A stretch of DNA of 42,492 nucleotides from an uncultured Ruminococcus sp. (GCA_964385735.1 CAYLQF010000001.1:1-42492), one strand, 5' to 3'; shown: positions 8,522 through 42,430, counted from the first letter of the stretch. Numbers and translations are program-made. Notes: generated from the letters alone by a model not told the origin.

Positions 8522-9610
8522 ATGGCTAAGGCAAAGAAAATGACAGCAAAGGAAAAAAAGGATAATAAGGAATTCTTTGAGGCTTTGAGCCTTATGGAGC
8601 AGGAAAGGGGTATCCCGAAGGAATTTATTGCCGAAAAGATAGCGGAGGCTATAATCGTTGCGGCAAGAAAGGATTATGGCGATAATAATACGGTTTCCTG
8701 CACTATAGATCCCGAAAAGGAAATATTTCTTGTTACCGCAAGAAAGGAAATCGTAGATACCGTTGAGGACCCCTACACTCAGATATCCAAGGAGGAAGCG
8801 GCAGCTATAGATCCGTCCTCGCTTGAGGAGGGCTTCATAAGCATAAAGCTTGATCCGAAGAAGTTCGGAAGAATAGTTGCTCAAAATTCCAAAAACAATT
8901 TCCGTCAGGGCGTAAGAGAAGCGGAAAGGGGTCAAACTCTGGCAGAGTTTCAAAGCCATAACAGAGAGCTTGTTACGGCGATAGTAGAGCGTATAGACCC
9001 CAAAACGGGGAATGCGATTTTAACCATAGGAAATAATGAGGCCACCCTGCCGAAGATAGAGCAGGTTCCGGACGAGGTTATAGCCGAGGGTGACCATATA
9101 AAGGTTTATGTTGTTGATGTTAAGGAAAGCGAGAGAGGACCACGCATAATGCTTTCACGCACCCATCCCGGTCTTGTTAAACGACTGTTCGAGGCAGAGG
9201 TTCCCGAAATATTTGACGGTACGATACAGATAAAGAGTATTTCCCGTCAGGCAGGACTTCGCACGAAAATCGCCGTATGGTCCGATAACTCCGAGGTCGA
9301 CCCTATAGGCGCCTGCATAGGTCCTAAGGGCACAAGAGTGAACAAGATAGTAGAAGAGCTCGGCGGAGAAAAAATAGATATAGTTAAATACAGCGACGAT
9401 CCCGCAACCTTCGTTGCCGAGGCGCTTTCTCCCGCAAGGGCAGTATCGGTTGAGATTGAAAGCACAGAGCCGAAGCTCTGCAAGGTAAGCGTTCCCGAGG
9501 CTCAGCTTTCCCTTGCAATAGGAAACAAGGGACATAATGTAAAGCTTGCCGCAAAGCTTACGGGCTGGAAGATAGACATTCATCCCGAAAGCGGCTTCTT
9601 CGGCGAATAA
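8522..9610 (+). CDS. nusA: Transcription termination/antitermination factor NusA
   Basis: Has the N-terminal FFEALSLMEQERGI motif, an S1 domain and two KH domains with GxxG (IGPKGTRV, IGNKGHNV). The start could be 8522 (after GGAGG 8506-8510) or 8504. Confidence 0.9.
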   Translation: MAKAKKMTAKEKKDNKEFFEALSLMEQERGIPKEFIAEKIAEAIIVAARKDYGDNNTVSCTIDPEKEIFLVTARKEIVDTVEDPYTQISKEEAAAIDPSSLEEGFISIKLDPKKFGRIVAQNSKNNFRQGVREAERGQTLAEFQSHNRELVTAIVERIDPKTGNAILTIGNNEATLPKIEQVPDEVIAEGDHIKVYVVDVKESERGPRIMLSRTHPGLVKRLFEAEVPEIFDGTIQIKSISRQAGLRTKIAVWSDNSEVDPIGACIGPKGTRVNKIVEELGGEKIDIVKYSDDPATFVAEALSPARAVSVEIESTEPKLCKVSVPEAQLSLAIGNKGHNVKLAAKLTGWKIDIHPESGFFGE

Positions 9611-9632
9611 TTTTCGGGGAGGTAGCCTAAGG

Positions 9633-9905
9633 GTGACTGTTAAAAAAACGCCTATGCGTATGTGTCTTGTATGCAGAGAAATGAAGCCGAAGCAGGAGCT
9701 TTTAAGGGTAGTTAAGACCAAGGACGGCAAAATTTTTGCCGACCCCTCCGGCAAAGCCGGCGGAAGAGGGGCTTATATCTGCAAAAATTCCGTATGTATA
9801 GAAAAGGCGGCAAAAACAAGCGCTTTAAGCAGGTGCTTTTGCGCTCCGGTTGCACAGGAGACATACGAGCTGCTGAGGGAGGCAACCGAAAAAGTTGAAG
9901 GATAA
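9633..9905 (+). CDS. ylxR: YlxR/RnpM-family (DUF448) RNA-binding protein
   Basis: 90-aa ORF with RMCLVCREMKPKQELLRVV and GRGAYIC motifs, in the conserved position after nusA. GTG start follows GGGGAGG. Confidence 0.85.
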   Translation: MTVKKTPMRMCLVCREMKPKQELLRVVKTKDGKIFADPSGKAGGRGAYICKNSVCIEKAAKTSALSRCFCAPVAQETYELLREATEKVEG

Positions 9906-9909
9906 AGTG

Positions 9910-10221
9910 ATGACCTTGCTCGGCTTTGCGGCAAAGGCGGGCAAGCTATCGTACGGGCAGGCGGCGGCGATTGAGTCGGCGCAAAGAAAAAAAGCGAGGC
10001 TTATGGCGGTGAGCGGTGAAATATCGCCGAAAAGTCTTAAGGAAATTAAATTTTATGCGGATAAAGCGAGCATAAAAACGGTAGTTTTAAAGGATACTTC
10101 TATAACCGCTCTTTCAGCTGCGGTAGGCAGAAGCTGCGGCGCACTCAGCGTAAATGACGGTTCTTTTGCCGAGGCAATAATAAAGCAATTGTCTACAGGA
10201 GGAAATGCTAATGACGAATAA
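9910..10221 (+). CDS. L7Ae/L30e-family ribosome-associated protein (YlxQ-like)
   Basis: About 103 aa ([16 protein letters not shown]...), in the conserved position between ylxR and infB. GAAGGA lies 6 nt before the ATG at 9910. Alternative starts are GTG 9907 and TTG 9895. Confidence 0.8.
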
Positions 10222-12811
10222 ATACAAAATAAGCGAGCTTGCAAAGGATTTTGGGATACCCTCTAAAGATATAATCGCCTTAATAAAGGAGCTTACAGGC
10301 GAAGAGAAAAAATCGGGAGCGGCCTTAAATGAGGCGGAAACCGCTCTTGTTTTCGATGCTCTTACAAAGAAAAACAGCGTTAAAAGCTTTGATGCATATT
10401 TTGCCGCAGGTGAGGAAACCAGAAAAAAGGCGGCTAAGGAGCATGAGGAGCGGAAAAACAAAAAGCTTGCCGAGCAGATGGCAATATTAGAGCAGCTTAA
10501 GGCGGCGGCAGACGGTCAAAAGCCGGAGGCTGCCGAAAGCAAGGAAAAGACCGAGAAAAAGCCGCAGCAGGCAAAGAGCAAGGCAAAATCCGCCGAAACA
10601 AAGGTAGCGGCATCGAGGTCGGCTGACGAAAAATCGGCAGAGTTAAGGCCTGATGACAAGGCCGAAAAGAAAACCGAGAAAAAATCGGCATCGGCTGCGG
10701 AAAAGACTAAAAAGCAGGCTGCGACCTCCGAAAAGAGCGAGGGTAAGAAGACGGAAAAGGCCGAAAAGCCTTATACGGGCCCGCTTGTAGCCCCTCCGAA
10801 AAAGGAGAAAAAGGGCGGCGAGGCTCCAAACAGAGGTCCGGCTCAGCTCAGGCATGTTGACACGAGAACCGTTAATGTAAACATAGATAAATATAACGAA
10901 AAATATGAAACCATAGCGCCTGCAAGCACTATGAAGGATAACTTTACACGCAAGCAGAAAATTAAGCAAAAATCTCAGGATTATCGCAGACCTAAGGGTG
11001 TAAAGAGGGAGACCGAGGCGGATAAGCTCAGAAGAATGCAGCTTGAGCGTATAAAAAAGACCCCGATAACCGTTACCGTCGGCGAAGAGATAACCGTCGC
11101 AGAGCTTGCTGCTGCACTTAAGAAAACCGCTTCCGAGGTTATTAAAAATCTTATGAAGCTCGGAATGATGGCAACCGTAAATCAAGTTATCGATTATGAT
11201 ACGGCAGAAATAGTCGTAACCGAAATGGGAGCCAAAATTCAAAAAGCGGTAGTTGTTACAATAGAAGACAAAATAATGGATGTTACCGAGGATACCGCCG
11301 AGAGCCTAAAGCCGAGAAGTCCTATAGTAGTTGTTATGGGCCATGTTGACCACGGTAAAACCTCCTTGCTGGACGCCATCAGAAACACAGCGGTTACCGA
11401 TACCGAGGCCGGCGGAATCACGCAGCATATCGGTGCCTACAGGGTAAACTGCAACGGTCAGGATATAACCTTCCTTGATACTCCCGGACACGCTGCGTTT
11501 ACCGCAATGCGTCAAAGAGGAGCAATGGCAACCGATATAGCGGTGCTTGTTGTCGCTGCGGATGACGGTATAATGCCTCAGACGGTTGAAGCGATAAATC
11601 ACGCCAAGGTCGCAGGAGTTCAGATTATAGTTGCGATAAACAAAATGGATAAGCCCGAAGCCAATCCGGACCGTGTTTTACAGCAGCTTACGGAATACTC
11701 GGTTGTTCCCGAGCAGTGGGGCGGCGATGTTATATGCGTTCCTGTTTCCGCAAGAACGCATGACGGTATAGATAAGCTTCTTGAGAATATACTTCTTGTT
11801 GCGGAAATGCTTGAGCTTAAAGCAAATCCCGACCGTAAGGCGAGGGGCGTTGTTGTTGAAGCAAGGCTTGATAAGGGCAGAGGCCCCGTTGCAACGCTGC
11901 TTGTTCAAAACGGCACCCTGTATGCAGGTGACATTATAGTTGCGGGAACCGCTGTCGGCAGAGTAAGACTTATGACCGATGAAAACGGCAGGCAGGTAAA
12001 GCAGGCAGGTCCGTCTGTTCCGGTAGAGATAACGGGTCTTGCCGAGACACCGAGCGCAGGTGATAATTTTGATGCGGTTTCGGACGAACGCCTTGCAAGA
12101 GAGCTTGTTGAACAGCGTAAGGAAAAGATAAAGAACGAGCAGTTTAATGCAAAGCAGAAGGTAACTCTCGATAATCTGTTCAGTCAGCTTTCAGAGGGTG
12201 AGCTTAAGGAGCTTAATGTTATAGTTAAGGCGGATGTTCAGGGAAGCGTTGAGGCCGTTAAGGACAGTCTTGTCAAGCTCTCTAACAATGAGGTAAGGGT
12301 AAGCGTTATACACGGCGGCGTAGGAGCGGTAAACGAATCGGATGTTATGCTTGCTCAAACCTCCGGTGCGATAATAGTAGGCTTTAATGTAAGACCCGAC
12401 TCGGTTGCTGCGGCAGCTGCCGAAAAGGACGGCGTAGATATCCGTATGTACAGGGTCATTTACGACTGCATTGAGGAAATAGAAGCCGCTATGAAGGGTA
12501 TGCTTGCTCCGAAATACAGAGAAAGCATTCTCGGAACAGCGGAGGTAAGAAACACCTATAAGATTTCAAGCGTGGGAACTATCGCCGGCTGTTATATAAC
12601 AAACGGTAAGGTAACCCGCTCCTGCAAGATAAGGGTGGTAAGAGACGGTATAGTTATCTGTGAGGATGCTATAGCCTCGCTCCGCAGATTTAAGGACGAT
12701 GTAAAAGAAGTGGCACAGGGCTACGAATGTGGTATAGGACTTGAAAAATTTGCCGATATTAAGGACGGCGATGTATTCGAAGCCTTTGTTATGGAGGAGT
12801 ACAGAGATTAA
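10211..12811 (+). CDS. infB: Translation initiation factor IF-2
   Basis: G-domain motifs [17 protein letters not shown] and NKMD, plus a K/E/A-rich N-terminal region. AGGAGG (10197-10202) favours the ATG at 10211 over 10205. Confidence 0.95.
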
Positions 12812-23761: not shown

Positions 23762-25450
23762 ATGTCAGTTCTGGTTGAAAAAGCCAAAAATCAAATAGAA
23801 GCGGCGCTTATTAAGGCGGCCGAGAGCGCTATGAAAAAAGGAGAGCTTGAGGAAAAGGAGCTTACCGCATTTGCGGTAGAGGCTCCGGCGAACAGAGCTA
23901 ACGGTGACTATGCGGCAAATGCGGCGCTTGTTTGGGCTAGGGTTTTTCATAAGGCTCCGGCGCAGATAGCCGAAATTTTGCTTAAAAACCTTGAGCTTTC
24001 GGGACTGTATGCGGTAAAGGTCGAGTGTGCAGGCCCGGGGTTTATAAATTTTTTCCTTTCAGATGCCTATTATGCCGACATTCTTTCCGATATAGAAGCA
24101 AAGGGCTCGGATTACGGCAGAAGTGATTACGGTAAGGGCAAAAGGGTTTTGGTTGAGTTCGTTTCGGCAAACCCCACGGGACCTATGCATATAGGAAATG
24201 CAAGAGGCGGCGCCTTGGGAGACTGTCTTGCTGCGGTTATGGAGGCAGCAGGATATTATACCGAGCGGGAATTTTATATAAATGATGCCGGAAATCAGAT
24301 AAACAAATTTGCTCTTTCGTTGGATATCAGATACCGTCAGCTTTACGAGGACGGGATTGAGATGCCCGAGGATAGCTACCACGGTGACGATATCGTTGCT
24401 CATGCAAGGGCATTTGCCGAAATAAACGGCGACTCCTATATGAATAAGCCCGAAGATGAGCGCAGAGCGGCACTTGTCGAATTTGCGTTGCCTAAAAATA
24501 TACAGGGTCTTAAGGATGACCTTAAGAAATACAGAATAGAATACGATACATGGTTTAATGAAAGCTCGCTGCATAAAAACGGTGAGACAAAAAGAATTAT
24601 TGAGCTTTTGAAGAAAAGCGGGTATACCTACGAGAGTGAGGGTGCATTGTGGTTTAAGGCTACCGATTTCGGCTGTGATAAGGACTTTGTGCTTGTAAGG
24701 GCTAACGGTGTGCCTACATATGTTGTACCGGATATCGCTTATCATTACAATAAGCTTGAAATAAGAAAATTCGATAAGGCGATAGATGTTCTCGGGGCAG
24801 ACCATCATGGCTATGTTCCCCGCCTTAAGGCAGCACTTACGGCACTCGGCGTTGATGCACAGCGCCTTGATGCGGTGCTTATGCAAATGGTTCGTCTTGT
24901 AAGGGACGGCGAGGTTATTAAGGCCTCAAAGCGTTCGGGCAAGGCCATAACGCTTGTAACTCTTCTTGATGAGGTTCCGATAGATGCCGCAAGATTTTTC
25001 TTTAATCTAAGAGAGCCCAACAGCCATTTCGATTTTGATCTTGACCTTGCGGTAAGCGAGTCCTCAAGCAATCCCGTTTACTATGTTCAGTATGCTTATG
25101 CGAGAATATGCAGCATTTTCAGAAATCTTGAGGCTGAGGGAATAAGCACAAGAAAAGCTACAAGGGACGAGCTTATGCTTCTTTCAACACCGGAGGAAAG
25201 AGAGCTTATTCTTCATCTTGCGGCATATACAGGCGAGATTATACAGTCTGCAAGGGCTTATGACCCCGCAAGAATTACCCATTATGCGTTAGAGCTTGCA
25301 ACGAAATTCCATAAATTTTACGCTTCATGCAGGGTAAAGGGCATAGATGAAGGACTTATGAGTGCAAGGCTTTCGCTTTGCAGAGCTACGGCAACGGTTA
25401 TTAAAAATGTTCTTGATATGCTCAAGGTTTACGCACCCGAGAAAATGTAA
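23762..25450 (+). CDS. argS: Arginine--tRNA ligase
   Basis: 562-aa class I aaRS with the HIGH-type motif PTGPMHIGNARG and an ArgRS C-terminal anticodon-binding region. Confidence 0.95.
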   Translation: MSVLVEKAKNQIEAALIKAAESAMKKGELEEKELTAFAVEAPANRANGDYAANAALVWARVFHKAPAQIAEILLKNLELSGLYAVKVECAGPGFINFFLSDAYYADILSDIEAKGSDYGRSDYGKGKRVLVEFVSANPTGPMHIGNARGGALGDCLAAVMEAAGYYTEREFYINDAGNQINKFALSLDIRYRQLYEDGIEMPEDSYHGDDIVAHARAFAEINGDSYMNKPEDERRAALVEFALPKNIQGLKDDLKKYRIEYDTWFNESSLHKNGETKRIIELLKKSGYTYESEGALWFKATDFGCDKDFVLVRANGVPTYVVPDIAYHYNKLEIRKFDKAIDVLGADHHGYVPRLKAALTALGVDAQRLDAVLMQMVRLVRDGEVIKASKRSGKAITLVTLLDEVPIDAARFFFNLREPNSHFDFDLDLAVSESSSNPVYYVQYAYARICSIFRNLEAEGISTRKATRDELMLLSTPEERELILHLAAYTGEIIQSARAYDPARITHYALELATKFHKFYASCRVKGIDEGLMSARLSLCRATATVIKNVLDMLKVYAPEKM

Positions 25451-33291: not shown

Positions 33292-34056
33292 TTAGTGCTC
33301 GGTAAAGCGCTTATAAGCGGCGGGAGAAGCTTTTTCGGCTTTTACAAAGGTCTTATACATATGCGAATAATCGGAAAAGCCGCATTCCTCGGCTATGTTT
33401 TCCATAGAGGTGTCGGAGGCCTCCATAAGTGCCTTGGCCTTGTTAATTCTTAATTGACTGAGGTATTTCATAGGCGTTACACCGTAAAAATCGGAGAATA
33501 TTTTTATAAGGGTATTTTTGGTGTAATTGTATTTAACGCAAAACTGCTCAAGTGTTAATTTTTCACTTAAATGCTCTGACATATCCGCTGCCATATTTCT
33601 TGCAAGCTCTTCCGACGGGCTTGTCGGCTGAACTCGAAACAGCTTAGTAACAATGCCGTAGAAAATACCCGTTTTTATTACATTCGGCATATCTGAGCCT
33701 TGGGCACGCTCAAGGTTTTTTATATCCGGCATAATATCATATTCGGAAAAGCTGCCCCGTTTTTTAAGAAACGGGGCATTTTCTGTCCATTCACCTAAAA
33801 ATTCTATGTAAAAATATTTGGGATGCTCGCTTGGAATACGCCCCTCTTGAAGCAGACCGTGCCTTTGAATATAATATTCACCCTGTGAAAGGCTTATATC
33901 CTCGCCGTCCTCGGTAAAATGCAAGACACCGCCGAGCATAAGAATTAAAACATCAAAGCCGAAGCGTCTGTTTACATGGCGCTCGTTTTCATTGAAAAAT
34001 CGCATAGATGAAATTCTGTATTTTAGAGGATAGCTTAAGCTTAAACCCGATTCCAT
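33292..34056 (-). CDS. AraC-family transcriptional regulator
   Basis: 254-aa ORF with a cupin-like N-terminus and a C-terminal AraC HTH (MENIAEECGFSDYSHMYKTFVKAEKASPAAYKR). Divergent from the glycosidase-like gene. Confidence 0.85.
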   Translation of the reverse strand: MESGLSLSYPLKYRISSMRFFNENERHVNRRFGFDVLILMLGGVLHFTEDGEDISLSQGEYYIQRHGLLQEGRIPSEHPKYFYIEFLGEWTENAPFLKKRGSFSEYDIMPDIKNLERAQGSDMPNVIKTGIFYGIVTKLFRVQPTSPSEELARNMAADMSEHLSEKLTLEQFCVKYNYTKNTLIKIFSDFYGVTPMKYLSQLRINKAKALMEASDTSMENIAEECGFSDYSHMYKTFVKAEKASPAAYKRFTEH

Positions 34057-34171: not shown

Positions 34172-36535
34172 ATGAAAAAACGCCTTTTAAAAACGATATC
34201 TGTTTTATTGGTGGGTGTCTTTATGCTTTCGGGCTGTGGGGAAAATAAAGAAAAAAAGAAAAATGTAAATTCGGTGCAGTCAGGGGAAGCAACTGCGGTA
34301 AATCCTCTTGACGGGATAAGCTTTTATGCTTTAAGCGCCGGAGAGGTGCAGGCCGAGGGCTGGCTTAGAAATCAGCTTGTGCTGCTTGCGGAAAATATGG
34401 CAGCTGATTTTGAAAGCATTTCGCCTACTGTGAAAGCAACCGGTGATGACCGCTCCGGCTGGCTCGGAGGTACGGGCGAAAGCTGGGAGCGCAGTGCGTA
34501 TTATGTGAGGGGTCTTGTTTCCTTAGGCTATACCTTAAACGATGAAAAGCTGAAAAAGCAGGCGCAGAAATGGTTGGATTGGACGCTCGAAAGTCAAAGT
34601 GAGTCCGGTCTGTTCGGGCCCTATGCGAATAACGAGGAGCAGTTTGACGACTGGGCTGTTATGCCTATGCTTTTGGCTTTAGAGGAATATTACGATGCCT
34701 CGGGTGATGAGCGGGTTATACCTTTTCTTCAAAAATATTTTAAGTATCAGTCGGAAAATATAGGCAGCATTATAGAGACGGGCTCGTGGGCTTATTGGAG
34801 AGCTTGCGATAATATATATGCCGTATGGTGGCTTTGGAACAAAACGGGTGACGATTCTCTCAAGGATTTATGTATAAGGCTTGAAGCCAAGGGCTATAAA
34901 TGGAGCACCGCCTACCGTGAAAATATTTTCGATAAGGAAAATAACTACCATATAGTAAATATACATCAAGCCCTCAAGCTGTATCCGACTATGTATGCCC
35001 TAACCGGCAAGGAGGGGTATCTTACATCTTATTACGAGGGACTTGAAAGCCTGTATATATCCTCCGTTCGGCAGGACGGTATGTCCAACGGCGATGAATA
35101 TCTAAGAGGCAATTCCGCAACCTACGGAACCGAGACCTGCGCTGTGGCGGAGCGTATTCTTTCGGATAAAATTTCACTTCTCTTTACCAAAGACCCTACA
35201 GTTGCGGACAGCCTTGAAAATGTTGCGTATAACTGTCTGCCTCAGCAATTGCTGTCCGACGGTAAGGGATATGCGTATTTTACAATGCAAAATCAGATAG
35301 ATGCTTCACTTGGCAGCAAGGGCTTTCTCACCGAATACGGAACCGGCTTATGCTACGGTACTCCGAGCGGATGTCCCTGCTGTGCGCATAATTATCTTAT
35401 GGCTTGGCCGGAATTTGTTCAGAGTATGTGGATGAAAACCAGCGATAACGGGCTTGCGGTAGGCTCCTACGGCCCGAACACCGTAACCGCCGACCTCGGA
35501 GATAAGGGCAGGCTTACGGTTAAAGAGGAAACGAATTATCCCTATGAGGAGACCGTTAAGCTTACAATCACTCCCGAAAAGGACGGCACCGAATGTCCGC
35601 TGTATCTCAGAATTCCCGAGTGGTGCGAGGGAGCTTCACTTAAAATAAACGGCAAGACGGAGGATACGGTGCTTCGTGCAGGAGAGTATGTAAAGCTTCT
35701 GCGAGGCTGGAAAAGCGGCGATACTGTAGAGCTTGTATTTCCTATGAGCTTTAAGGCTACCTTTACCGAAAACAACAGTGTGAGCATAAAATACGGAGCG
35801 GTTTTGTTTGCGGTAAAAATAGACGAAAGCAAGCAAAAAACAACCTATACGAATAATTATAATAAGGATTATGATTATCTCGGCGGCAAGTATTTGAATT
35901 ATAACATTACCGCCGTCTCCGATTGGAATTTTGCTCTAAAGGACTTTAATTTTAATGATGTTGCTTCTAATTTTACCGTTTCGAAAAAATCGATAACCGA
36001 TAATATGAGCTATGAGCAGTCCGAAGCGCCTATTGTGCTTACGGCAAAGGGTATTAAGGTAACAACATGGTGCGCAAATTCCAAAAATGTTGCCGAAAAG
36101 CCTCCGGTTTCTCCGGTTACAGGTGAAAATCTCGGAGAAAGCTCGGATATAACCCTTATACCTTATGCCTTTTCAAGGCTTCGTATCACTATGATACCGT
36201 GGACGGGGTCGAGCGCTGTCGAATACACGGCCGACAAAAGCTACAGCGATGAGAGTAGCATAAGTCTAAGCGGAATTATAGTACCGGACAGCTCGGATTA
36301 TGACGGTAGGATAACCTTCTTTATTTCCTATCAGTCGAGCAGCGACCTTTATTTGCGCCTTTATATAAACAAATCGGAAAATTCTCAGATTTTGAATTTT
36401 AAAAAGGGCGAAAATACGATTGAAATATCATATCCTTATGAAAGCTGCTTTGAAAAAAACAATCTTCTTAAATTTGAAACGGTTGACGGCTCGGCGCTCC
36501 CTGAGGATTTTACCGTATCCGTTATGGTAGGATGA
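34172..36535 (+). CDS. GH127/GH146-like (DUF1680) putative beta-L-arabinofuranosidase, lipoprotein
   Basis: Lipobox MLSGC/GE. Cys/Glu-containing motifs GTETCAVAE and GCPCCAHNY resemble the Zn-Cys catalytic centre motifs (E-x-C ... C-C) of GH127 as I recall them. 787 aa. Confidence 0.55.
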   Translation: MKKRLLKTISVLLVGVFMLSGCGENKEKKKNVNSVQSGEATAVNPLDGISFYALSAGEVQAEGWLRNQLVLLAENMAADFESISPTVKATGDDRSGWLGGTGESWERSAYYVRGLVSLGYTLNDEKLKKQAQKWLDWTLESQSESGLFGPYANNEEQFDDWAVMPMLLALEEYYDASGDERVIPFLQKYFKYQSENIGSIIETGSWAYWRACDNIYAVWWLWNKTGDDSLKDLCIRLEAKGYKWSTAYRENIFDKENNYHIVNIHQALKLYPTMYALTGKEGYLTSYYEGLESLYISSVRQDGMSNGDEYLRGNSATYGTETCAVAERILSDKISLLFTKDPTVADSLENVAYNCLPQQLLSDGKGYAYFTMQNQIDASLGSKGFLTEYGTGLCYGTPSGCPCCAHNYLMAWPEFVQSMWMKTSDNGLAVGSYGPNTVTADLGDKGRLTVKEETNYPYEETVKLTITPEKDGTECPLYLRIPEWCEGASLKINGKTEDTVLRAGEYVKLLRGWKSGDTVELVFPMSFKATFTENNSVSIKYGAVLFAVKIDESKQKTTYTNNYNKDYDYLGGKYLNYNITAVSDWNFALKDFNFNDVASNFTVSKKSITDNMSYEQSEAPIVLTAKGIKVTTWCANSKNVAEKPPVSPVTGENLGESSDITLIPYAFSRLRITMIPWTGSSAVEYTADKSYSDESSISLSGIIVPDSSDYDGRITFFISYQSSSDLYLRLYINKSENSQILNFKKGENTIEISYPYESCFEKNNLLKFETVDGSALPEDFTVSVMVG

Positions 36536-36631: not shown

Positions 36632-36672
36632 TTCAAATTTTTCAATCATTTTTCAATATTCTGTGCTATAAT
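36632..36672 (+). promoter_or_regulatory. Promoter with phased direct repeats (putative response-regulator box) upstream of the RR gene
   Basis: TTCAAATTT (36632-36640), TTCAATCAT (36641-36649), tt, TTCAATATT (36652-36660), 6 nt, then extended -10 TGcTATAAT (36664-36672). Confidence 0.55.
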
Positions 36673-36765: not shown

Positions 36766-37449
36766 ATGCGACTTTTACTTGTCGAGGATGAAAAAAGAAT
36801 GGCACAGGCATTGTGTGAAATCTTGCGCCTTGAAAAATATGAGGTTGACCATTACACAAACGGTCTTGACGGCTTGTCCGCAATCGAAAGCAATGTTTAC
36901 GATATTGTAATTCTTGATGTTATGCTTCCGAAAATGAATGGGTATGAGATTGCAAAAATAGCCCGCAGCAAAGGCGTTACAGCTCCGATTTTAATGCTTA
37001 CCGCCAAGGCAGAGCTTGACGATAAAGTAATGGGGCTTGACAGCGGTGCAGATGATTACTTGACAAAGCCGTTTATGACTAAGGAATTACTTGCTAGGCT
37101 TCGTGCGCTCAGCAGGCGAAGGCTCGGCACAACCGACGGGATATTATCCTTTGCGGATATTACCCTTGATATAAGCACGCTGATTTTATCCTGCACAAGC
37201 AACGGTCAAAGTGTTAGACTCAGTGAAAAGGAATACCGTATTCTTGAATATTTAATGTCTAACAGTGGTCATATTTTAACCCGTGAACAGCTTGCGTTAA
37301 AAATTTGGGGATTTGAAAGCGAAGCCGAGTACAATAATGTGGAAGTATATATGTCGTTTACCCGTAAAAAGCTTGCGTTTGTCGAAGCAAGGACCGAAAT
37401 TAAAGCCGTGCGTGGAATCGGATATGAATTAAGGTGCGACAATGTTTAA
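36766..37449 (+). CDS. OmpR/PhoB-family response regulator
   Basis: Receiver domain (MRLLLVEDE..., DIVILDVMLP, LTAK) plus a winged-helix C-terminus (VEVYMSFTRKKL...VRGIGYEL). GGGAGG SD. Confidence 0.9.
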   Translation: MRLLLVEDEKRMAQALCEILRLEKYEVDHYTNGLDGLSAIESNVYDIVILDVMLPKMNGYEIAKIARSKGVTAPILMLTAKAELDDKVMGLDSGADDYLTKPFMTKELLARLRALSRRRLGTTDGILSFADITLDISTLILSCTSNGQSVRLSEKEYRILEYLMSNSGHILTREQLALKIWGFESEAEYNNVEVYMSFTRKKLAFVEARTEIKAVRGIGYELRCDNV

Positions 37450-38692
37450 GAAATCAAGACGAAAAATCGTTACGGCAATTATGTCCATACTTGTGGCTTT
37501 ATGGGTGGGAACACTCGGTGTTATCTATGTATCCAGCTATTTCGAAATGACAGGACAAAACGAACAAATGCTTCAAACACACGCCGAGCTGTATGTGCTT
37601 CCTCAAGCATTTGAGGAAACGCTTCCGCCAGAAAAGCCTGTTCCGGACAGTAATAAAAATACCACTCCCGACTTTGAAGAACAGTCGCCGAGGTTTCGGC
37701 TGTCCACTTTTTATACCGTTGCAATGTCGTATGACGGAGAAATTCTTGAGATAAAGAACGAACAGCCGACTATACATACCGATGCTGAGCTGGAAAATAT
37801 GGCGCAAAGCATTATTAAGAGCAATAAGAGTGCCGGCAGCAGCGACAATCTTGCTTTCTGTAAAACGGATAAGGGCGGATATCTCCTTGTTACCTTTATG
37901 GATAATACCGTTATCAATGAAAGCGCTATGACTTTATTTCGGTACACACTTATTTTCGGTTGTGTGGCAATGGTGCTGTTTTTCTTTCTGTCGGTATTTC
38001 TTGCGAGGAAAATCGTACATCCGCTTGAGGAAAGCTATCAAAAGCAGAAGCAATTTATATCCGATGCCGGTCATGAGCTGAAAACACCGGTATCGGTGGT
38101 TAGTGCCAATGCCGAGCTTTTGTCCCGTGAGCTCGGTGATAATCAATGGCTTCAAAACATTCAATACGAAAACGAACGGATGGGCATACTTGTAGGGCAG
38201 CTTCTTGAGCTTGCCCGAACTGAAAAGCTTACGCCGCAGACAGAGCATATTGATTTCAGCCGGCTTGTTGCCGGAGAAACGCTTCCGTTTGAAAGTGTGG
38301 CCTTTGAAAAGGGAATGGTTTTGAACAGCGATATTACTAAGGGCATTGCTGTAGAAGGCAACAGCACACAGCTTAAACAAATTGTAGCTATACTTCTTGA
38401 TAATGCTATTCGTCACAGCAAGAAGCCTGGTGAAGTGTATTTATCCTTAACAAGGGAAAGCAATCTTGCCAAGCTTTCCGTTATCAATAACGGCGATGAA
38501 ATCTCTACGGAACAGCGTGAGCGGATATTTGAACGCTTTTATCGACTTGATACTGCCCGTAGCGAAGAGGATAAGCATTACGGTCTGGGCCTTGCCATAG
38601 CCAAAGCAATAGTAGCTTCGCACAAGGGTCGAATCGAAGTGCTTTGCTATAACGGACTTGTGGAATTCAGAGTGCAAATTCCGGAAAGCTGA
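37442..38692 (+). CDS. Sensor histidine kinase (two TM helices, extracytoplasmic sensor, HisKA + HATPase_c)
   Basis: H-box SDAGHELKTP, N-box LLDNAIRHS, G-box GLGLAIAK. TM1 is at about aa 9-31 and TM2 at about aa 165-187. It overlaps the RR gene by 8 nt. Confidence 0.9.
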   Translation: MFKKSRRKIVTAIMSILVALWVGTLGVIYVSSYFEMTGQNEQMLQTHAELYVLPQAFEETLPPEKPVPDSNKNTTPDFEEQSPRFRLSTFYTVAMSYDGEILEIKNEQPTIHTDAELENMAQSIIKSNKSAGSSDNLAFCKTDKGGYLLVTFMDNTVINESAMTLFRYTLIFGCVAMVLFFFLSVFLARKIVHPLEESYQKQKQFISDAGHELKTPVSVVSANAELLSRELGDNQWLQNIQYENERMGILVGQLLELARTEKLTPQTEHIDFSRLVAGETLPFESVAFEKGMVLNSDITKGIAVEGNSTQLKQIVAILLDNAIRHSKKPGEVYLSLTRESNLAKLSVINNGDEISTEQRERIFERFYRLDTARSEEDKHYGLGLAIAKAIVASHKGRIEVLCYNGLVEFRVQIPES

Positions 38693-38705: not shown

Positions 38706-38738
38706 TTCAATATTACTTCAATATTCCTCCTGTACAAT
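38706..38738 (+). promoter_or_regulatory. Putative RR-dependent promoter of the VTC-DUF4956-CotH operon
   Basis: TTCAATATT (38706-38714), ac, TTCAATATT (38717-38725), 7 nt, TACAAT (38733-38738). There is no good -35. The architecture matches the box upstream of the RR gene. Confidence 0.5.
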
Positions 38739-38768
38739 GATATCATTAAAGTACAGGAGGATTTTTAT
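38726..38768 (+). terminator. Terminator-like hairpin after the histidine kinase gene (overlaps the putative downstream promoter)
   Basis: CCTCCTGTAC (38726-38735) / GTACAGGAGG (38751-38760), a 15-nt loop containing the palindrome AATGATATCATT, followed by ATTTTTAT. Confidence 0.5.
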
Positions 38769-38798: not shown

Positions 38799-39470
38799 AT
38801 GAAATACCGACACGAGTGGAAGCATGAGATAAGCTACGGTGATATGCTCGTTCTCCGGCAGCGTTTATCTGCTGTTATGAAGTGTGATGCTCACGCTGTT
38901 GACGGCAAGTATTTGATCCGAAGTTTGTATTTCGATAACGCATACGATAAGGCACTGAGAGAAAAGCTTGACGGTGTGAATATTCGTGAAAAATTCCGAA
39001 TTCGATATTATAACGGTGATACATCCTTGATTCATCTGGAGAAGAAAAGCAAGGTGAACGGCTTATGCCTGAAGGACAGCACGGTGCTGACCGAAGAACA
39101 GGCACAGTCGATTGTAAAGGGTGACTATACTTGGATGGTAGACAGTGGTGCTCCGTTGATTCAGGAGCTGTACAGTAAAATGCTGAGTCAGGGACTGAGA
39201 CCTAAAGTCATCGTAGATTATTTAAGAGAGCCTTTTGTGTTCGCACCGGGCAATGTAAGGGTTACTATTGACTATAATATTCGCACGGGAATGAATTGTA
39301 CGGACTTTTTAAATTCCGACTGTGTTACGGTTACTGCGGGTGATGCTCCCATAATCCTTGAAGTGAAATGGGATGAATATCTGCCGGATATTATCCGTGA
39401 TGTTGTACAGCTCCCTAATTGCCGAGTGGGTGCTTTTTCAAAATATGCCGTATGCAGAATATACGGCTGA
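38799..39470 (+). CDS. VTC-domain (polyphosphate-polymerase-like, triphosphate-tunnel fold) protein
   Basis: 223 aa with no TM helix. It shows the alternating charged beta-strand motifs typical of CYTH/VTC tunnels: YRHEWKHEI, EKFRIRYY, IHLEKKSK, IILEVKWDE. Confidence 0.7.
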   Translation: MKYRHEWKHEISYGDMLVLRQRLSAVMKCDAHAVDGKYLIRSLYFDNAYDKALREKLDGVNIREKFRIRYYNGDTSLIHLEKKSKVNGLCLKDSTVLTEEQAQSIVKGDYTWMVDSGAPLIQELYSKMLSQGLRPKVIVDYLREPFVFAPGNVRVTIDYNIRTGMNCTDFLNSDCVTVTAGDAPIILEVKWDEYLPDIIRDVVQLPNCRVGAFSKYAVCRIYG

Positions 39471-39499
39471 AGCAATTTAATTTATAAGGAGTAAGTATT

Positions 39500-40171
39500 A
39501 TGACCTTCAATGACATTTTCAAATCAAGCTTTTTGGAAAATATTACAAGCGTGAGCATTCTCGATATGGCGCTTGCTTTAGTCCTCGCCTTTGGCGTAGG
39601 GATGTTTATTTTTCTTGTATATAAAAAGACCTATCAGGGTGTAATGTATTCTTCGAGCTTCGGAACAACACTTGTTGCCCTTACGATGATCACCACCGTT
39701 GTTATCCTTGCGGTAACCTCCAATGTGGTTCTTTCTCTCGGTATGGTAGGCGCACTTTCTATTGTTCGTTTTCGTACCGCCATTAAGGAGCCTCTTGATA
39801 TTGCTTTTCTTTTCTGGTCAATTGCGGTAGGCATCGTATTGGCGGCGGGTATGATTCCTCTTGCCGTAATCGGCAGCGTTATCATCGGAGTAATCCTTCT
39901 TGTATTCGTGAACAGAAAGTCTTACTGCAACCCGTATATTCTTGTTCTTTCCTGTGCCGATGCCACGGCAGAAAAGAAAGCAGTTGATTTTCTAAAAGGA
40001 AATGTTCAAAAATGTGTTGTTAAGAGCAAAACAGCAGCTAAGGGCTTAATTGAACTTAATCTTGAAATTCGTATGGCGAATGACAGCACCGATTTCATCA
40101 ATGCTCTCAGCGCCATGTCCGGTGTAAACAGCGCAGTTCTTGTAAGCTATAACGGCGAGTATATGGGCTAA
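39500..40171 (+). CDS. DUF4956-family membrane protein
   Basis: 223 aa with four predicted TM helices, the conserved-looking basic motif LGMVGALSIVRFRTAIKEPLD, and a soluble C-terminal domain of about 85 aa. AAGGAG SD. Confidence 0.65.
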   Translation: MTFNDIFKSSFLENITSVSILDMALALVLAFGVGMFIFLVYKKTYQGVMYSSSFGTTLVALTMITTVVILAVTSNVVLSLGMVGALSIVRFRTAIKEPLDIAFLFWSIAVGIVLAAGMIPLAVIGSVIIGVILLVFVNRKSYCNPYILVLSCADATAEKKAVDFLKGNVQKCVVKSKTAAKGLIELNLEIRMANDSTDFINALSAMSGVNSAVLVSYNGEYMG

Positions 40172-40182
40172 GGAGGTACGCT

Positions 40183-42330
40183 ATGTCAACACATAAGCAT
40201 TTTGATAAAATTTGCTGTGTTGTTCTTGCCGTCACGCTGCTTCTTACTGTATTGTTTATGAATGCCGAAAAATTCGGCGTGCAAAAGACCTCCACGGTAA
40301 TGGGATATGAAAACAAGCTGTTTGACATCTCTACTGTCCATACGATAGATATTATTATGGATGATTGGGATACCTTTACGGCAAATTGTAAAAGTGAAGA
40401 ATACTACCCCTGCTCGGTTGTGATTGATAATGAAGCTTATAAAAATGTTGCAATACGAGGTAAGGGTAATACTTCGCTGACTCAGGTTGAAGCCTATGGA
40501 AATGACCGTTACAGCTTCAAGCTTGAGTTTGACCATTACGACAGCACCAAAACCTACTACGGGCTAGATAAATTGTGTCTGAACAATATCATTCAGGACA
40601 ACACCTATATGAAGGATTATCTGACCTATCAGATGATGAATGAAATGGGTGTGGCTTCTCCTCTTTGCAGTTATGTTTATATTACCGTTAACGGTGAGGC
40701 TTGGGGACTTTATCTTGCGGTAGAGGGCGTTGAGGAAGCTTTTCTGCAACGCAATTACGGAAATAATTACGGTGAGCTTTATAAGCCTGACAGTCAGAGC
40801 ATGGGCGGCGGCCGAGGAAACGGTGAAAAATTCGATATGGATGAATTTTTAGGCGGTTCCGACTCCGAGAGCGCAGACAATATTCAAAGCAGTGATATCG
40901 ATAACGGTAATCAAATGCCGAGCGGAAATATGCAGGGCGGAACAATCCCTCCGGAGCTACCAAGCGGAGGAATACCCCAGAGCAATAATGCACAAGGCGG
41001 TATGAGACCTTTCGGCAATTCGGCAATCACAGACGGTTCATCAACCGATACCGACAGTCGGGCGCAGCAAGGCGGTATTGCTTCGGAAATCGGAGGACAA
41101 ATGCCTGAGGGCAGTATGCGTGACGAAGCTAAAGGCGGAATGACAAACGGCAGCGATGATGTATTGCTGAAATATATTGATGATGAGCTTGAAAGCTATG
41201 TAAATATCTTCGACAATGCTAAAACCGATGCCTCTGACAGTGATAAAAAGCGATTGATTGCAGCTCTTAAAAGCTTGAACAGCGGCGAAGACCTGAAGAA
41301 CACCGTTGATATTGAGAAGGTGATTCGTTATTTCGTTGTGCATAATTTCGTTTTGAACTTCGACAGCTATACCGGTTCGATGATTCACAACTATTATCTT
41401 TACGAAAAAGACGGACAAATGCAGATGATTCCGTGGGACTATAACCTTGCCTTCGGCGGCTTTCAATCTATGAGAGATGCTACAAGTCTTGTGAACTATC
41501 CGATAGATTCTCCTGTATCCGGCGGTAATGTCGAGGACAGACCGATGCTTGCATGGATATTTGAAAATGAGGAATACACAGAACTTTATCATCAATATTT
41601 TGCGGAATTCATAACTGAGTATTTTGACAGCGGTTATTTCTCGGAGATGATAGATGACATAAACGCAATGATTTCTCCTTATGTTGAAAATGATCCCACC
41701 AAGTTCTGCACCTATGAAGAATTTGAAACGGGTATTGCAACACTTAAAGAGTTCTGCTTACTTCGTGCCGAAAGTATAAGCGGTCAGCTTAACGGTACCA
41801 TCGGATCAACCTCCGACACACAGACAAGCGATACTCTTATTGATGCGGGCGATCTGCAAATCGACGATATGGGCTCTATGAACAACACGATGAGCGACGG
41901 TATGCAGTTCGGCGGAAATATCCAAATTCCGAATGCGGACGCAGCCTCTAACGGTGAACAGCTTTCCGGTATAGGTAAAAGCAACGAAGCTATAGAGCCT
42001 GCCGCAAGCACACCTGATAGCTCCAAAAGCGATGGGGCAACAGGCAGACTGATGACACAAATGCCTAACGGTAATCAGGGTGGCTTTAACGGAGGGCAGC
42101 TGCAAGGCGAAGCACCGCCCGATTTTGCCGAAGGCGAAAACGGACAGCAGGGTGATTTCGGCGGTCAAATGCAACCGCCTGACGGAAACGCTCAAATTGA
42201 CAATAATAAACAAATGCAGCAGCAAGGGGAAAGCACTGTAGATATTTTCTCATGGCTTGCGGTCGGTATAAGCACGGCAATTCTTGTATTGGGACTTGTG
42301 TTTGCGTTCAGATTCAAAAGGCGAAAATAA
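40183..42330 (+). CDS. CotH-family atypical kinase, membrane-anchored at both termini
   Basis: CotH-like motifs YSFKLEFD, GELYKPD, HNYYLYEKDGQMQMIPWDYNLAFG. N-terminal TM at aa 10-26 and C-terminal TM at aa 688-709 followed by RFKRRK. AAGGAGG SD. Confidence 0.75.
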   Translation: MSTHKHFDKICCVVLAVTLLLTVLFMNAEKFGVQKTSTVMGYENKLFDISTVHTIDIIMDDWDTFTANCKSEEYYPCSVVIDNEAYKNVAIRGKGNTSLTQVEAYGNDRYSFKLEFDHYDSTKTYYGLDKLCLNNIIQDNTYMKDYLTYQMMNEMGVASPLCSYVYITVNGEAWGLYLAVEGVEEAFLQRNYGNNYGELYKPDSQSMGGGRGNGEKFDMDEFLGGSDSESADNIQSSDIDNGNQMPSGNMQGGTIPPELPSGGIPQSNNAQGGMRPFGNSAITDGSSTDTDSRAQQGGIASEIGGQMPEGSMRDEAKGGMTNGSDDVLLKYIDDELESYVNIFDNAKTDASDSDKKRLIAALKSLNSGEDLKNTVDIEKVIRYFVVHNFVLNFDSYTGSMIHNYYLYEKDGQMQMIPWDYNLAFGGFQSMRDATSLVNYPIDSPVSGGNVEDRPMLAWIFENEEYTELYHQYFAEFITEYFDSGYFSEMIDDINAMISPYVENDPTKFCTYEEFETGIATLKEFCLLRAESISGQLNGTIGSTSDTQTSDTLIDAGDLQIDDMGSMNNTMSDGMQFGGNIQIPNADAASNGEQLSGIGKSNEAIEPAASTPDSSKSDGATGRLMTQMPNGNQGGFNGGQLQGEAPPDFAEGENGQQGDFGGQMQPPDGNAQIDNNKQMQQQGESTVDIFSWLAVGISTAILVLGLVFAFRFKRRK

Positions 42331-42390: not shown

Positions 42391-42430
42391 AATAAGTGCG
42401 TTAGGTCTTGAATTACCTTTTGCACTTATT
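42391..42430. terminator. Possible (bidirectional) terminator hairpin after the CotH gene
   Basis: AATAAGTGC (42391-42399) / GCACTTATT (42422-42430) with inner AGGT/ACCT pairing. The T tract is better on the - strand (TTTTTATGCTTTT) than on the + strand. Confidence 0.35.

Follow-up and report, generated by a model that had tools for sequence, protein, structure and literature searches.

The DNA stretch analysed here, referred to as the window, comprises 42,492 nucleotides (nt) from an uncultured Ruminococcus sp. (GCA_964385735.1 CAYLQF010000001.1:1-42492) and carries three consecutive open reading frames (ORFs) on its plus strand, encoding a VTC-domain protein (38799-39470; 223 amino acids), a DUF4956 membrane protein (39500-40171; 223 amino acids) and a CotH kinase-fold protein (40183-42330; 715 amino acids). 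The ORFs are separated by gaps of 29 and then 11 nt, and Shine-Dalgarno sites (GGGAG, AAGGAG and AAGGAGG) are located 7-12 nt 5' of their three start codons. Pfam searches placed all three products above the gathering cut-offs for VTC (130.8 vs 23 bits), DUF4956 (40.6 vs 30.6 bits) and CotH (214.2 vs 23.8 bits), in agreement with the families proposed in a first-pass annotation of the window made from the sequence alone. The ORF and sequence check likewise recovered the strand, gaps and Shine-Dalgarno sites given in that annotation, as well as the motifs that it had quoted (EWKHE, FRIRYY, LEKKSK, LEVKWD and SIVRFRTAIKEP, all present in the translations). The two hairpins described as bracketing the trio were assessed by folding against shuffled sequence, their loops exceeding the limit of a generic terminator scan, and both were confirmed. 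The upstream hairpin (38727-38761, plus strand) has a folding energy of -22 kcal/mol (z -5.5) and is directly followed by a U-run; the downstream one (42391-42430, plus strand; -15.8 kcal/mol, z -3.8), which a T-run follows directly, is a likely operon terminator and is not conserved in related loci.

The five-gene cassette and its predicted regulation

The functional unit in this region consists of five genes under predicted two-component control, encoding a response regulator, a histidine kinase and the VTC, DUF4956 and CotH proteins. The operon originally delineated is hence correct for the trio itself, and had overlooked the upstream two-component system that belongs to the unit. This system is composed of an OmpR/PhoB-family response regulator of 227 amino acids (36766-37449, plus strand; Pfam Response_reg, 95 bits, and Trans_reg_C, 74 bits), which scores below every NCBIfam equivalog cut-off, and a sensor histidine kinase of 416 amino acids (37442-38692, plus strand; Pfam HisKA and HATPase_c), whose ORF overlaps that of the regulator by 8 nt. 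Hydrophobic spans at residues 9-27 and 170-188 of the kinase correspond to two transmembrane helices flanking an external domain of ~125 amino acids. Homologues with 87-90% VTC identity keep the same five-gene block, and blastn comparisons revealed that the DNA common to related loci spans from 36754 to about 42334, with ~80% identity and unrelated flanks.

The conservation of the trio was analysed in 80 species-level loci, chosen via DUF4956 only from at least 599 existing DUF4956 matches. The VTC gene was found directly 5' of DUF4956 in 79 of these loci, and CotH was present in 60, revealing the strong co-occurrence of the three families that the first-pass annotation had proposed as a check. 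The VTC-DUF4956 pair is a fixed, almost obligate core, with an adjacency far beyond chance, and the three genes clearly work together. DUF4956 also follows VTC in all five distant lineages inspected, at VTC identities of 27-42%. These encompass a Pseudobutyrivibrio plasmid (CotH-VTC-DUF4956, within an exopolysaccharide cluster of glycosyltransferase, acyltransferase and pyruvyltransferase genes), a Planococcus plasmid (VTC-DUF4956-CotH, followed by genes for a hypothetical protein, a HEAT-repeat protein and a glycosyltransferase), Nonomuraea (VTC-DUF4956-CotH), Paenibacillus (VTC-DUF4956-Cthe_2159) and an E. faecalis plasmid, in which CotH lies apart from the VTC-DUF4956 pair. The ~2.2 kb between DUF4956 and CotH in this last plasmid (L091:7294-9515) may hold an extra gene. 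Overall, the VTC-DUF4956 pairing is present in at least several hundred gut and rumen Firmicutes species, plus Bacilli and Actinomycetota, and the nearest relatives of the cassette belong to Oscillospirales and Lachnospiraceae metagenome-assembled genomes from gut and rumen. Three metagenome proteins considered as DUF4956-CotH or VTC-DUF4956 fusions (P0131, P0209 and P0166) were rejected, given that their domains are truncated and that they probably reflect frameshift or assembly errors.

The flanks of the five-gene block change between genomes. In some related loci they contain tyrosine integrases, a MobL relaxase, RepA_N and TnpV, and in others housekeeping genes, which suggests that integrative or mobilisable elements carry the block as cargo. 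Instances in which the block adjoins integrase, MobL, HTH_17, RepA_N, TnpV or DUF6809 genes are found at L001:2499-7773, L002:946-2391 and 9412-11720, and L004:7023-7893. The guanine-cytosine content of the cassette (41-43%) is close to that of its flanks (44-47%); this difference was considered too small to serve as a stand-alone argument for transfer, and the case for mobility therefore rests on the changing flanks.

An exact-match search identified only two copies of the tandem box TTCAAT-N5-TTCAAT in the 42 kb window, both on the plus strand, located 5' of the response-regulator gene (36641-36657) and 5' of the VTC gene (38706-38722). The first copy ends 9 nt before a TATAAT -10 hexamer preceded by TGc (TGcTATAAT; hexamer at 36667-36672, plus strand), outlining a putative autoregulated promoter, and the second ends 10 nt before a -10-like TACAAT hexamer (38733-38738). 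This arrangement, with the box 9-10 bp 5' of the -10 hexamer, presumably corresponds to the geometry of PhoB-activated promoters. Both sites were found at matching places in the six close related loci (6/6), and the second box is invariant within a spacer between the histidine kinase and VTC genes that is 88% identical across related loci. The stem arms of the 38727-38761 hairpin, which encloses the TACAAT hexamer, are invariant in four loci. As a likely terminator, this hairpin would end the transcript of the two-component system, and the regulator would start a new transcript from inside it, at a predicted position near 38745.

A similar organization is apparent beyond the closest relatives. 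An exact hexamer repeat with an 11-bp period was detected 5' of VTC in 34 of 76 species-level loci, compared to 2.0 +/- 1.3 in shuffled sequences and 0-5 for other periods, with half-sites that vary among loci (TTCAGC, TTCAGT, TTCACA and others). Two-component systems, co-directional or divergent, adjoin the cassette in 34 of the 66 loci that could be judged. Since the 11-bp repeats are enriched and two-component systems are adjacent, predicted control by an OmpR-type regulator is a general trait of the cassette clade. The regulator in the window combines receiver and winged-helix domains, and its predicted binding sites are tandem direct repeats one helical turn apart, as in OmpR/PhoB-type systems.

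The Vtc4-like enzyme and its DUF4956 partner

The VTC-domain protein covers positions 2-229 of the 235 in the Pfam VTC model (PF09359). A profile of 22 bacterial homologues matched the catalytic domain of yeast Vtc4 (3g3q) with an E-value of 2.5e-8, and the tunnel residues of Vtc4, numbered after the full-length chain 8i6v, align with equivalent residues in the Ruminococcus protein: R264/R266 with R67/R69, E279/K281 with E81/K83, Y359/R361 with Y141/R143 and R373 with R154. All these residues are invariant in alignments of 22 and 51 bacterial sequences. The active site defined by cryo-electron microscopy of Vtc4 comprises K200, R264, R266, K281, R361, K458, S457 and Y359, together with the Mn-binding residue E426, and K458 sets active Vtc4 apart from the inactive Vtc2/3 (10.1101/2023.01.27.525886). 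Five of these nine residues (R264, R266, K281, Y359 and R361) hence have aligned and invariant counterparts in the bacterial protein and, at the level of sequence patterns, it is plausible that the invariant K8, E188/K190 and S214-K215 correspond to K200, E426 and S457-K458, respectively.

The structure predicted with AlphaFold2 (AF2) for this protein (pLDDT 89, pTM 0.85) is consistent with the sequence comparison. The top eight Foldseek matches are all Vtc4 structures (E-values 5e-13 to 2e-11, TMq 0.64-0.76), which rank above the inactive Vtc2/3 and far above ygiF, CYTH proteins and thiamine triphosphatase. A single-sequence search against the PDB returned only a weak match, with a best E-value of 0.24 to Vtc2. 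Taken together, profile and model provide good support for a predicted polyphosphate polymerase, and the soluble triphosphate-tunnel enzyme initially suggested is borne out by the Vtc4-like fold and the conserved tunnel residues.

The adjacent DUF4956 protein (PF16316) belongs to a family with 5,650 representative clusters at E <= 0.001, and all 58 aligned relatives match the Pfam model too. The alignment revealed a conserved signature (...SN..LSLGMVGALSIVRFRTAIKDP.D..F.FW...), with Y41, G81 and R90 invariant. In the AF2 model (pLDDT 87, pTM 0.76), a short N-terminal helix is followed by five membrane helices (20-44, 52-74, 76-88, 98-115 and 119-138) and by a beta-alpha-beta-beta-alpha-beta ACT-like domain (145-216). 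Four transmembrane helices and an intramembrane basic motif had been proposed for this protein, but the model contains five, and it places the conserved basic motif in a non-helical loop (89-97) between helices 3 and 4. The basic loops and the ACT-like domain fall on the same side of the membrane in this model. Based on their basic residues, loops 41-51 and 89-97 and the segment following helix 5 are predicted to be cytoplasmic, and the ACT-like domain would therefore face the soluble VTC enzyme.

Several lines of evidence relate DUF4956 to the MgtC/YhiD/SapB proteins, in which five membrane helices likewise precede an ACT-like domain in the cytoplasm. The NCBIfam YhiD model (PRK09977) matches the Ruminococcus protein nearly end to end (E 6.8e-7; 29 bits vs a cut-off of 214), the Pfam MgtC model matches it weakly (12.2 bits vs a cut-off of 31.4), as it does 45 of 58 DUF4956 members, and Foldseek ranks the C-terminal domain of MgtC first (2lqj, TMt 0.60). 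By profile and model, DUF4956 is thus a predicted remote relative of MgtC/YhiD that falls below the curated MgtC/YhiD/SapB cut-offs and differs from these families in having its own signature (...GALSIVRFRTAIKDP.D...) and in being paired with a VTC gene. A single-sequence PDB search with the protein was empty, and a DUF4956 profile yielded only noise against the PDB.

The first-pass annotation had interpreted the operon as a split bacterial VTC system, with DUF4956 as the missing channel. No Pfam DUF202 match was obtained for DUF4956, no VTC membrane chain was found among the Foldseek matches listed, and no Vtc1-like channel subunit with three transmembrane helices or SPX Pfam domain was detected in any cassette protein. 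Not being homologous to the VTC membrane chains, DUF4956 does not therefore represent the channel absent from a split VTC, and could act as a channel only as an oligomer. In both the cassette and the yeast VTC complex (Vtc4/Vtc3/Vtc1), the catalytic tunnel domain has conserved basic residues, the catalytic face is soluble and adjoins a membrane partner, and the membrane surface on the cytoplasmic side is basic. The two systems differ in that the cassette lacks the SPX domain and DUF202-type subunits with three transmembrane helices, its catalytic domain is a separate soluble protein, and its MgtC-like partner, with five helices and an ACT-like domain, comes from a different family than that of yeast.

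DUF4956 genes also appear in published expression tables. In B. thetaiotaomicron, BT3498 (DUF4956) is listed together with a DUF2490 gene (BT3498-BT3499) in an iron-dependent stimulon table, with a value of -7.6 (PMC10434189), and the S. mutans DUF4956 gene SMU_1946 is included in an sppR-mutant table with a value of 2.5 (PMC13454231); both genes go undiscussed in these papers.

The surface-tethered third component

The third protein of the cassette matches B. cereus CotH (5jd9) with an E-value of 9e-15. Its NFD (D394) and PWD (D419) motifs align with those of the B. cereus protein and show at least 95% conservation across 49 orthologues. In B. cereus CotH the two aspartates are 23 residues apart, matching the spacing of D228 and D251 in B. 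subtilis CotH, which are catalytic and metal-binding residues whose mutation inactivates the kinase (PMC7821199). The protein shares its fold and both catalytic aspartates with the spore-coat CotH of Bacillus, and departs from it in being a membrane-tethered ectodomain encoded in a predicted regulator-dependent operon and in the presence of a low-complexity insertion of ~120 residues in the kinase domain. This insertion (residues ~206-325, window positions 40798-41157) is rich in G, S, D, N and Q, and is gappy and variable in orthologues.

Hydrophobic helices were identified at residues 10-28, acting as an N-terminal signal-anchor, and 691-709. The C-terminal one lies between a variable G/Q-rich linker and an RFKRRK tail with five basic residues. 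Because these five basic residues follow the last helix, the C-terminus would lie inside and the CotH domain is likely to be extracellular, by the positive-inside rule alone. Hydropathy and tail charge hence uphold the topology that had been predicted for this protein, with transmembrane helices at both ends and the catalytic domain outside.

Among the 80 species-level loci, the third gene encodes CotH in 60 and a Cthe_2159 beta-helix protein (PF14262) in 17. The latter is found, for instance, at L012:2352-4376, L024:8712-10388, L061:2018-4132, L067:8680-10563 and L083:8707-10491, and also in Paenibacillus (L089:7416-9350). The Cthe_2159 third-gene proteins display the same N-terminal tail and helix as the CotH ones, and a similar C-terminal linker and transmembrane helix. 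Since proteins of both types share the cytoplasmic tail (MST(H/S)K.ID(K/R)IC) and the helix exit (T.LFMNGE), their N-terminal anchor is a specific module that probably contacts the VTC-DUF4956 core.

The replacement of CotH by the non-kinase Cthe_2159 in 17 of the 80 loci also implies that phosphotransfer by CotH cannot be what the third components have in common. According to the literature, Cthe_2159 binds cellulose and polygalacturonic acid, and the swap argues that binding or presentation, rather than kinase chemistry, is the shared role. The proposal that polyphosphate is the substrate or phosphodonor of CotH is weakened accordingly, as the 17 loci carry a non-kinase protein on the same anchor. 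A literature search found no link between CotH and extracellular polyphosphate.

A candidate polyphosphate pathway and its genomic context

The trio has been described in NELoc-2, the necrotic-enteritis locus of C. perfringens (Lepp 2010, PMC2879425), and as accessory genes of Gram-positive pel operons (Whitfield 2020, 10.1101/768473; Raju 2024, 10.1101/2024.04.20.589940). The initial statement that no physiological role has been assigned to it holds as regards function, and the trio itself was already known from these three papers. The pel accessory genes of S. intermedius encode a CotH-FN3 protein (SIR_1594), a VTC-like protein (SIR_1593) and an MgtC-like protein with four transmembrane helices and an ACT domain (SIR_1592) (Raju 2024, 10.1101/2024.04.20.589940). 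These are the same three families in one operon, with the same domain predictions (a secreted CotH with catalytic residues, a basic tunnel, and an MgtC-like protein with ACT domain), but they are arranged as CotH-VTC-DUF4956 instead of VTC-DUF4956-CotH. The window cassette, unlike the pel-linked trio, has its own two-component system, and its CotH is tethered by helices at both ends and lacks FN3. In addition, no pel genes contiguous with the cassette (pelDEADAFG), and no glycosyltransferase or polysaccharide-synthesis genes, were found in the 38 kb of the window upstream of it. The pel-operon authors reported failing to find the trio outside pel operons (10.1101/2024.04.20.589940), whereas many of the related loci analysed here carry it without pel genes. 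No polysaccharide genes were detected within the 8-10 kb flanks of 86 related loci, and no extra neighbour family of the cassette recurs in them, the only clusters being antisense-ORF artefacts and generic ABC ATPases.

In NELoc-2, as in the window, each VTC gene is followed by one for a membrane protein of 222-226 amino acids and then by CotH. The C. perfringens locus differs in that it continues with genes for a HEAT-repeat protein and a chitin-synthase-like glycosyltransferase, and in its association with a sigma/anti-sigma pair instead of a two-component system. The NELoc-2 proteins CP4_0461 and CP4_0464 (222-226 amino acids), annotated as 'tubulin/FtsZ GTPase' (PMC2879425), are probably mis-annotated DUF4956 members, judging from their size and position. 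With respect to these descriptions, the novel elements are a self-regulated, pel-independent cassette with changing flanks, its regulator boxes, the exchange of modules carried by one shared anchor, and the resemblance of DUF4956 to MgtC.

These features lead us to propose, tentatively and with somewhat less than even confidence, that the unit is a two-component-controlled cassette making polyphosphate, in which DUF4956 passes or presents the chain to the surface ectodomain. In response to an envelope signal, the regulator would activate both box-bearing promoters. The soluble Vtc4-like enzyme would dock on DUF4956, contacting its ACT-like domain in the cytoplasm and its conserved basic loop (R90, R92 and K96), and would convert ATP into polyphosphate on the inner side of the membrane. 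DUF4956, which probably forms an oligomer, would then pass the chain to the outer face or present it there, and the tethered ectodomain could bind or use it; this ectodomain is a CotH kinase in the window and, in sister cassettes, a Cthe_2159 beta-helix that binds polyanions. Surface phosphate or charge would thereby change in an inducible manner. Elsewhere, the trio is coupled to exopolysaccharide operons (Pel and NELoc-2). Within this scheme, the export of polyphosphate via DUF4956 and its use by CotH are put forward as hypotheses.

Several observations weigh against this proposal. Sequence alignment gave no counterparts for the Vtc4 residues K200, E426, S457 and K458, with terminal VTC sub-profiles giving SecA noise or nothing; no solved channel matched the membrane part of DUF4956 among the Foldseek matches listed; no reliable VTC-DUF4956 fusion was found in a search of long DUF4956 representatives; and the CotH protein retains its ATP-type catalytic aspartates. 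MgtC-family proteins are known as regulators that act via protein contacts, and not as transporters or channels. To our knowledge, no bacterial VTC-domain protein has been characterised biochemically, and we know of no CotH that uses polyphosphate. Moreover, polyphosphate was suggested to remain cytoplasmic in S. intermedius, and the four additional pel-linked genes are reported to be dispensable for its aggregation (Raju 2024, 10.1101/2024.04.20.589940). An intracellular role, which we regard as possible if on the unlikely side, would have DUF4956 act as an MgtC-like tether or regulator of the VTC enzyme or of the ATP/phosphate balance, with the ectodomain as a separate sensor or adhesin signalling via its cytoplasmic tail. 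The relationship with MgtC, the lack of a channel-like structural match and the suggestion by Raju et al. all agree with it, as do the conservation of the short cytoplasmic tail in the third-gene proteins and the exchange of CotH for a carbohydrate-binding beta-helix, since binding may be the role that both share. It leaves unexplained, however, the dedicated membrane partner of a cytoplasmic polymerase in 79 of 80 species, always beside a surface protein. The conserved basic loop of DUF4956 at the membrane face is also similar to the yeast channel's basic vestibule, and the trio recurs beside exported polysaccharide systems.

That same recurrence favours a further explanation, which we deem improbable, whereby the trio modifies an exopolysaccharide or wall polymer encoded elsewhere: CotH would phosphorylate a glycan or surface protein, and VTC-DUF4956 would provide either the phosphate donor or an anionic counterpart to a deacetylated, cationic polysaccharide. 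In other genomes the trio directly adjoins pel operons, sits within the Pseudobutyrivibrio plasmid cluster described above and, in Planococcus and NELoc-2, neighbours genes for HEAT-repeat proteins and glycosyltransferases, with a polysaccharide deacetylase present as well in NELoc-2; the binding of Cthe_2159 to cellulose and polygalacturonic acid fits as well. The lack of polysaccharide genes upstream of the cassette and around the 86 related loci, without any recurring neighbour family, nevertheless speaks against it, as does the reported dispensability for Pel-dependent aggregation in S. intermedius. It is also conceivable, and in our judgement very unlikely, that the VTC-domain protein is not a polymerase and has some other tunnel activity, such as triphosphatase or nucleotide cyclase, in which case the NCBI name 'polyphosphate polymerase domain' would be misleading. 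In its favour, hydrolases make up the majority of bacterial tunnel enzymes, four of the catalytic positions lack an aligned counterpart, and the N-terminal R-H-E-x-K of the protein resembles the CYTH signature, ExExK. In both sequence and structure, however, the protein is closer to Vtc4, with ygiF and CYTH proteins scoring four to five orders of magnitude worse, and at the pattern level its invariant S214-K215-Y216 would fit the S457-K458 pair of Vtc4.

Bacterial polyphosphate is thought to derive from PPK enzymes and to remain cytoplasmic. That a Vtc4-like polymerase almost always comes with both a membrane and a surface protein points to membrane-coupled synthesis. If the proposed export took place, it would provide gut bacteria with an inducible anionic surface layer, and would bear on biofilm matrices (Pel, and the NELoc-2 of necrotic-enteritis strains), on resistance to cations and peptides, and on how bacterial polyphosphate affects the host. 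The origin of the phosphate used by secreted CotH kinases would be addressed as well. The broadest formulation, which we consider doubtful, is that of a third bacterial polyphosphate route besides PPK1/PPK2, in which a Vtc4-like polymerase and an exporting MgtC-like protein, switched by a two-component system and spread horizontally among gut Clostridia, would work with a surface partner that retains the polymer (Cthe_2159) or employs it as an extracellular phosphodonor (CotH). The latter use would account for how secreted CotH kinases could function without ATP. The compact cassette, which carries its own regulators and a defined predicted operator but no polysaccharide genes, therefore offers a cleaner experimental handle than its pel-linked versions, whose deletion reportedly left aggregation unaffected.

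A role of the trio in anti-phage defence was also considered, and was dropped after a PADLOC search returned no match for any of its proteins; an Rfam search of intergenic regions for riboswitches or leader RNAs yielded no match at E <= 0.1. The rest of the window corresponds to ordinary Firmicutes chromosome, including nusA, infB, truB, lon, argS, a lysS-type gene, asnA and genes for glycogen phosphorylase and a GH127-like enzyme. The latter (beta-L-arabinofuranosidase family), a 787-amino acid protein with a lipoprotein-type N-terminus, is encoded immediately 5' of the cassette (34172-36535) and adjoins a divergent AraC-type regulator gene (33292-34056); no tie of this pair to the cassette was seen in other loci. 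The host species otherwise seems to be unsampled: ArgS (23762-25450) and the CotH protein of the cassette (40183-42330) are the sole members of their respective 90%-identity clusters among ~15 billion proteins.

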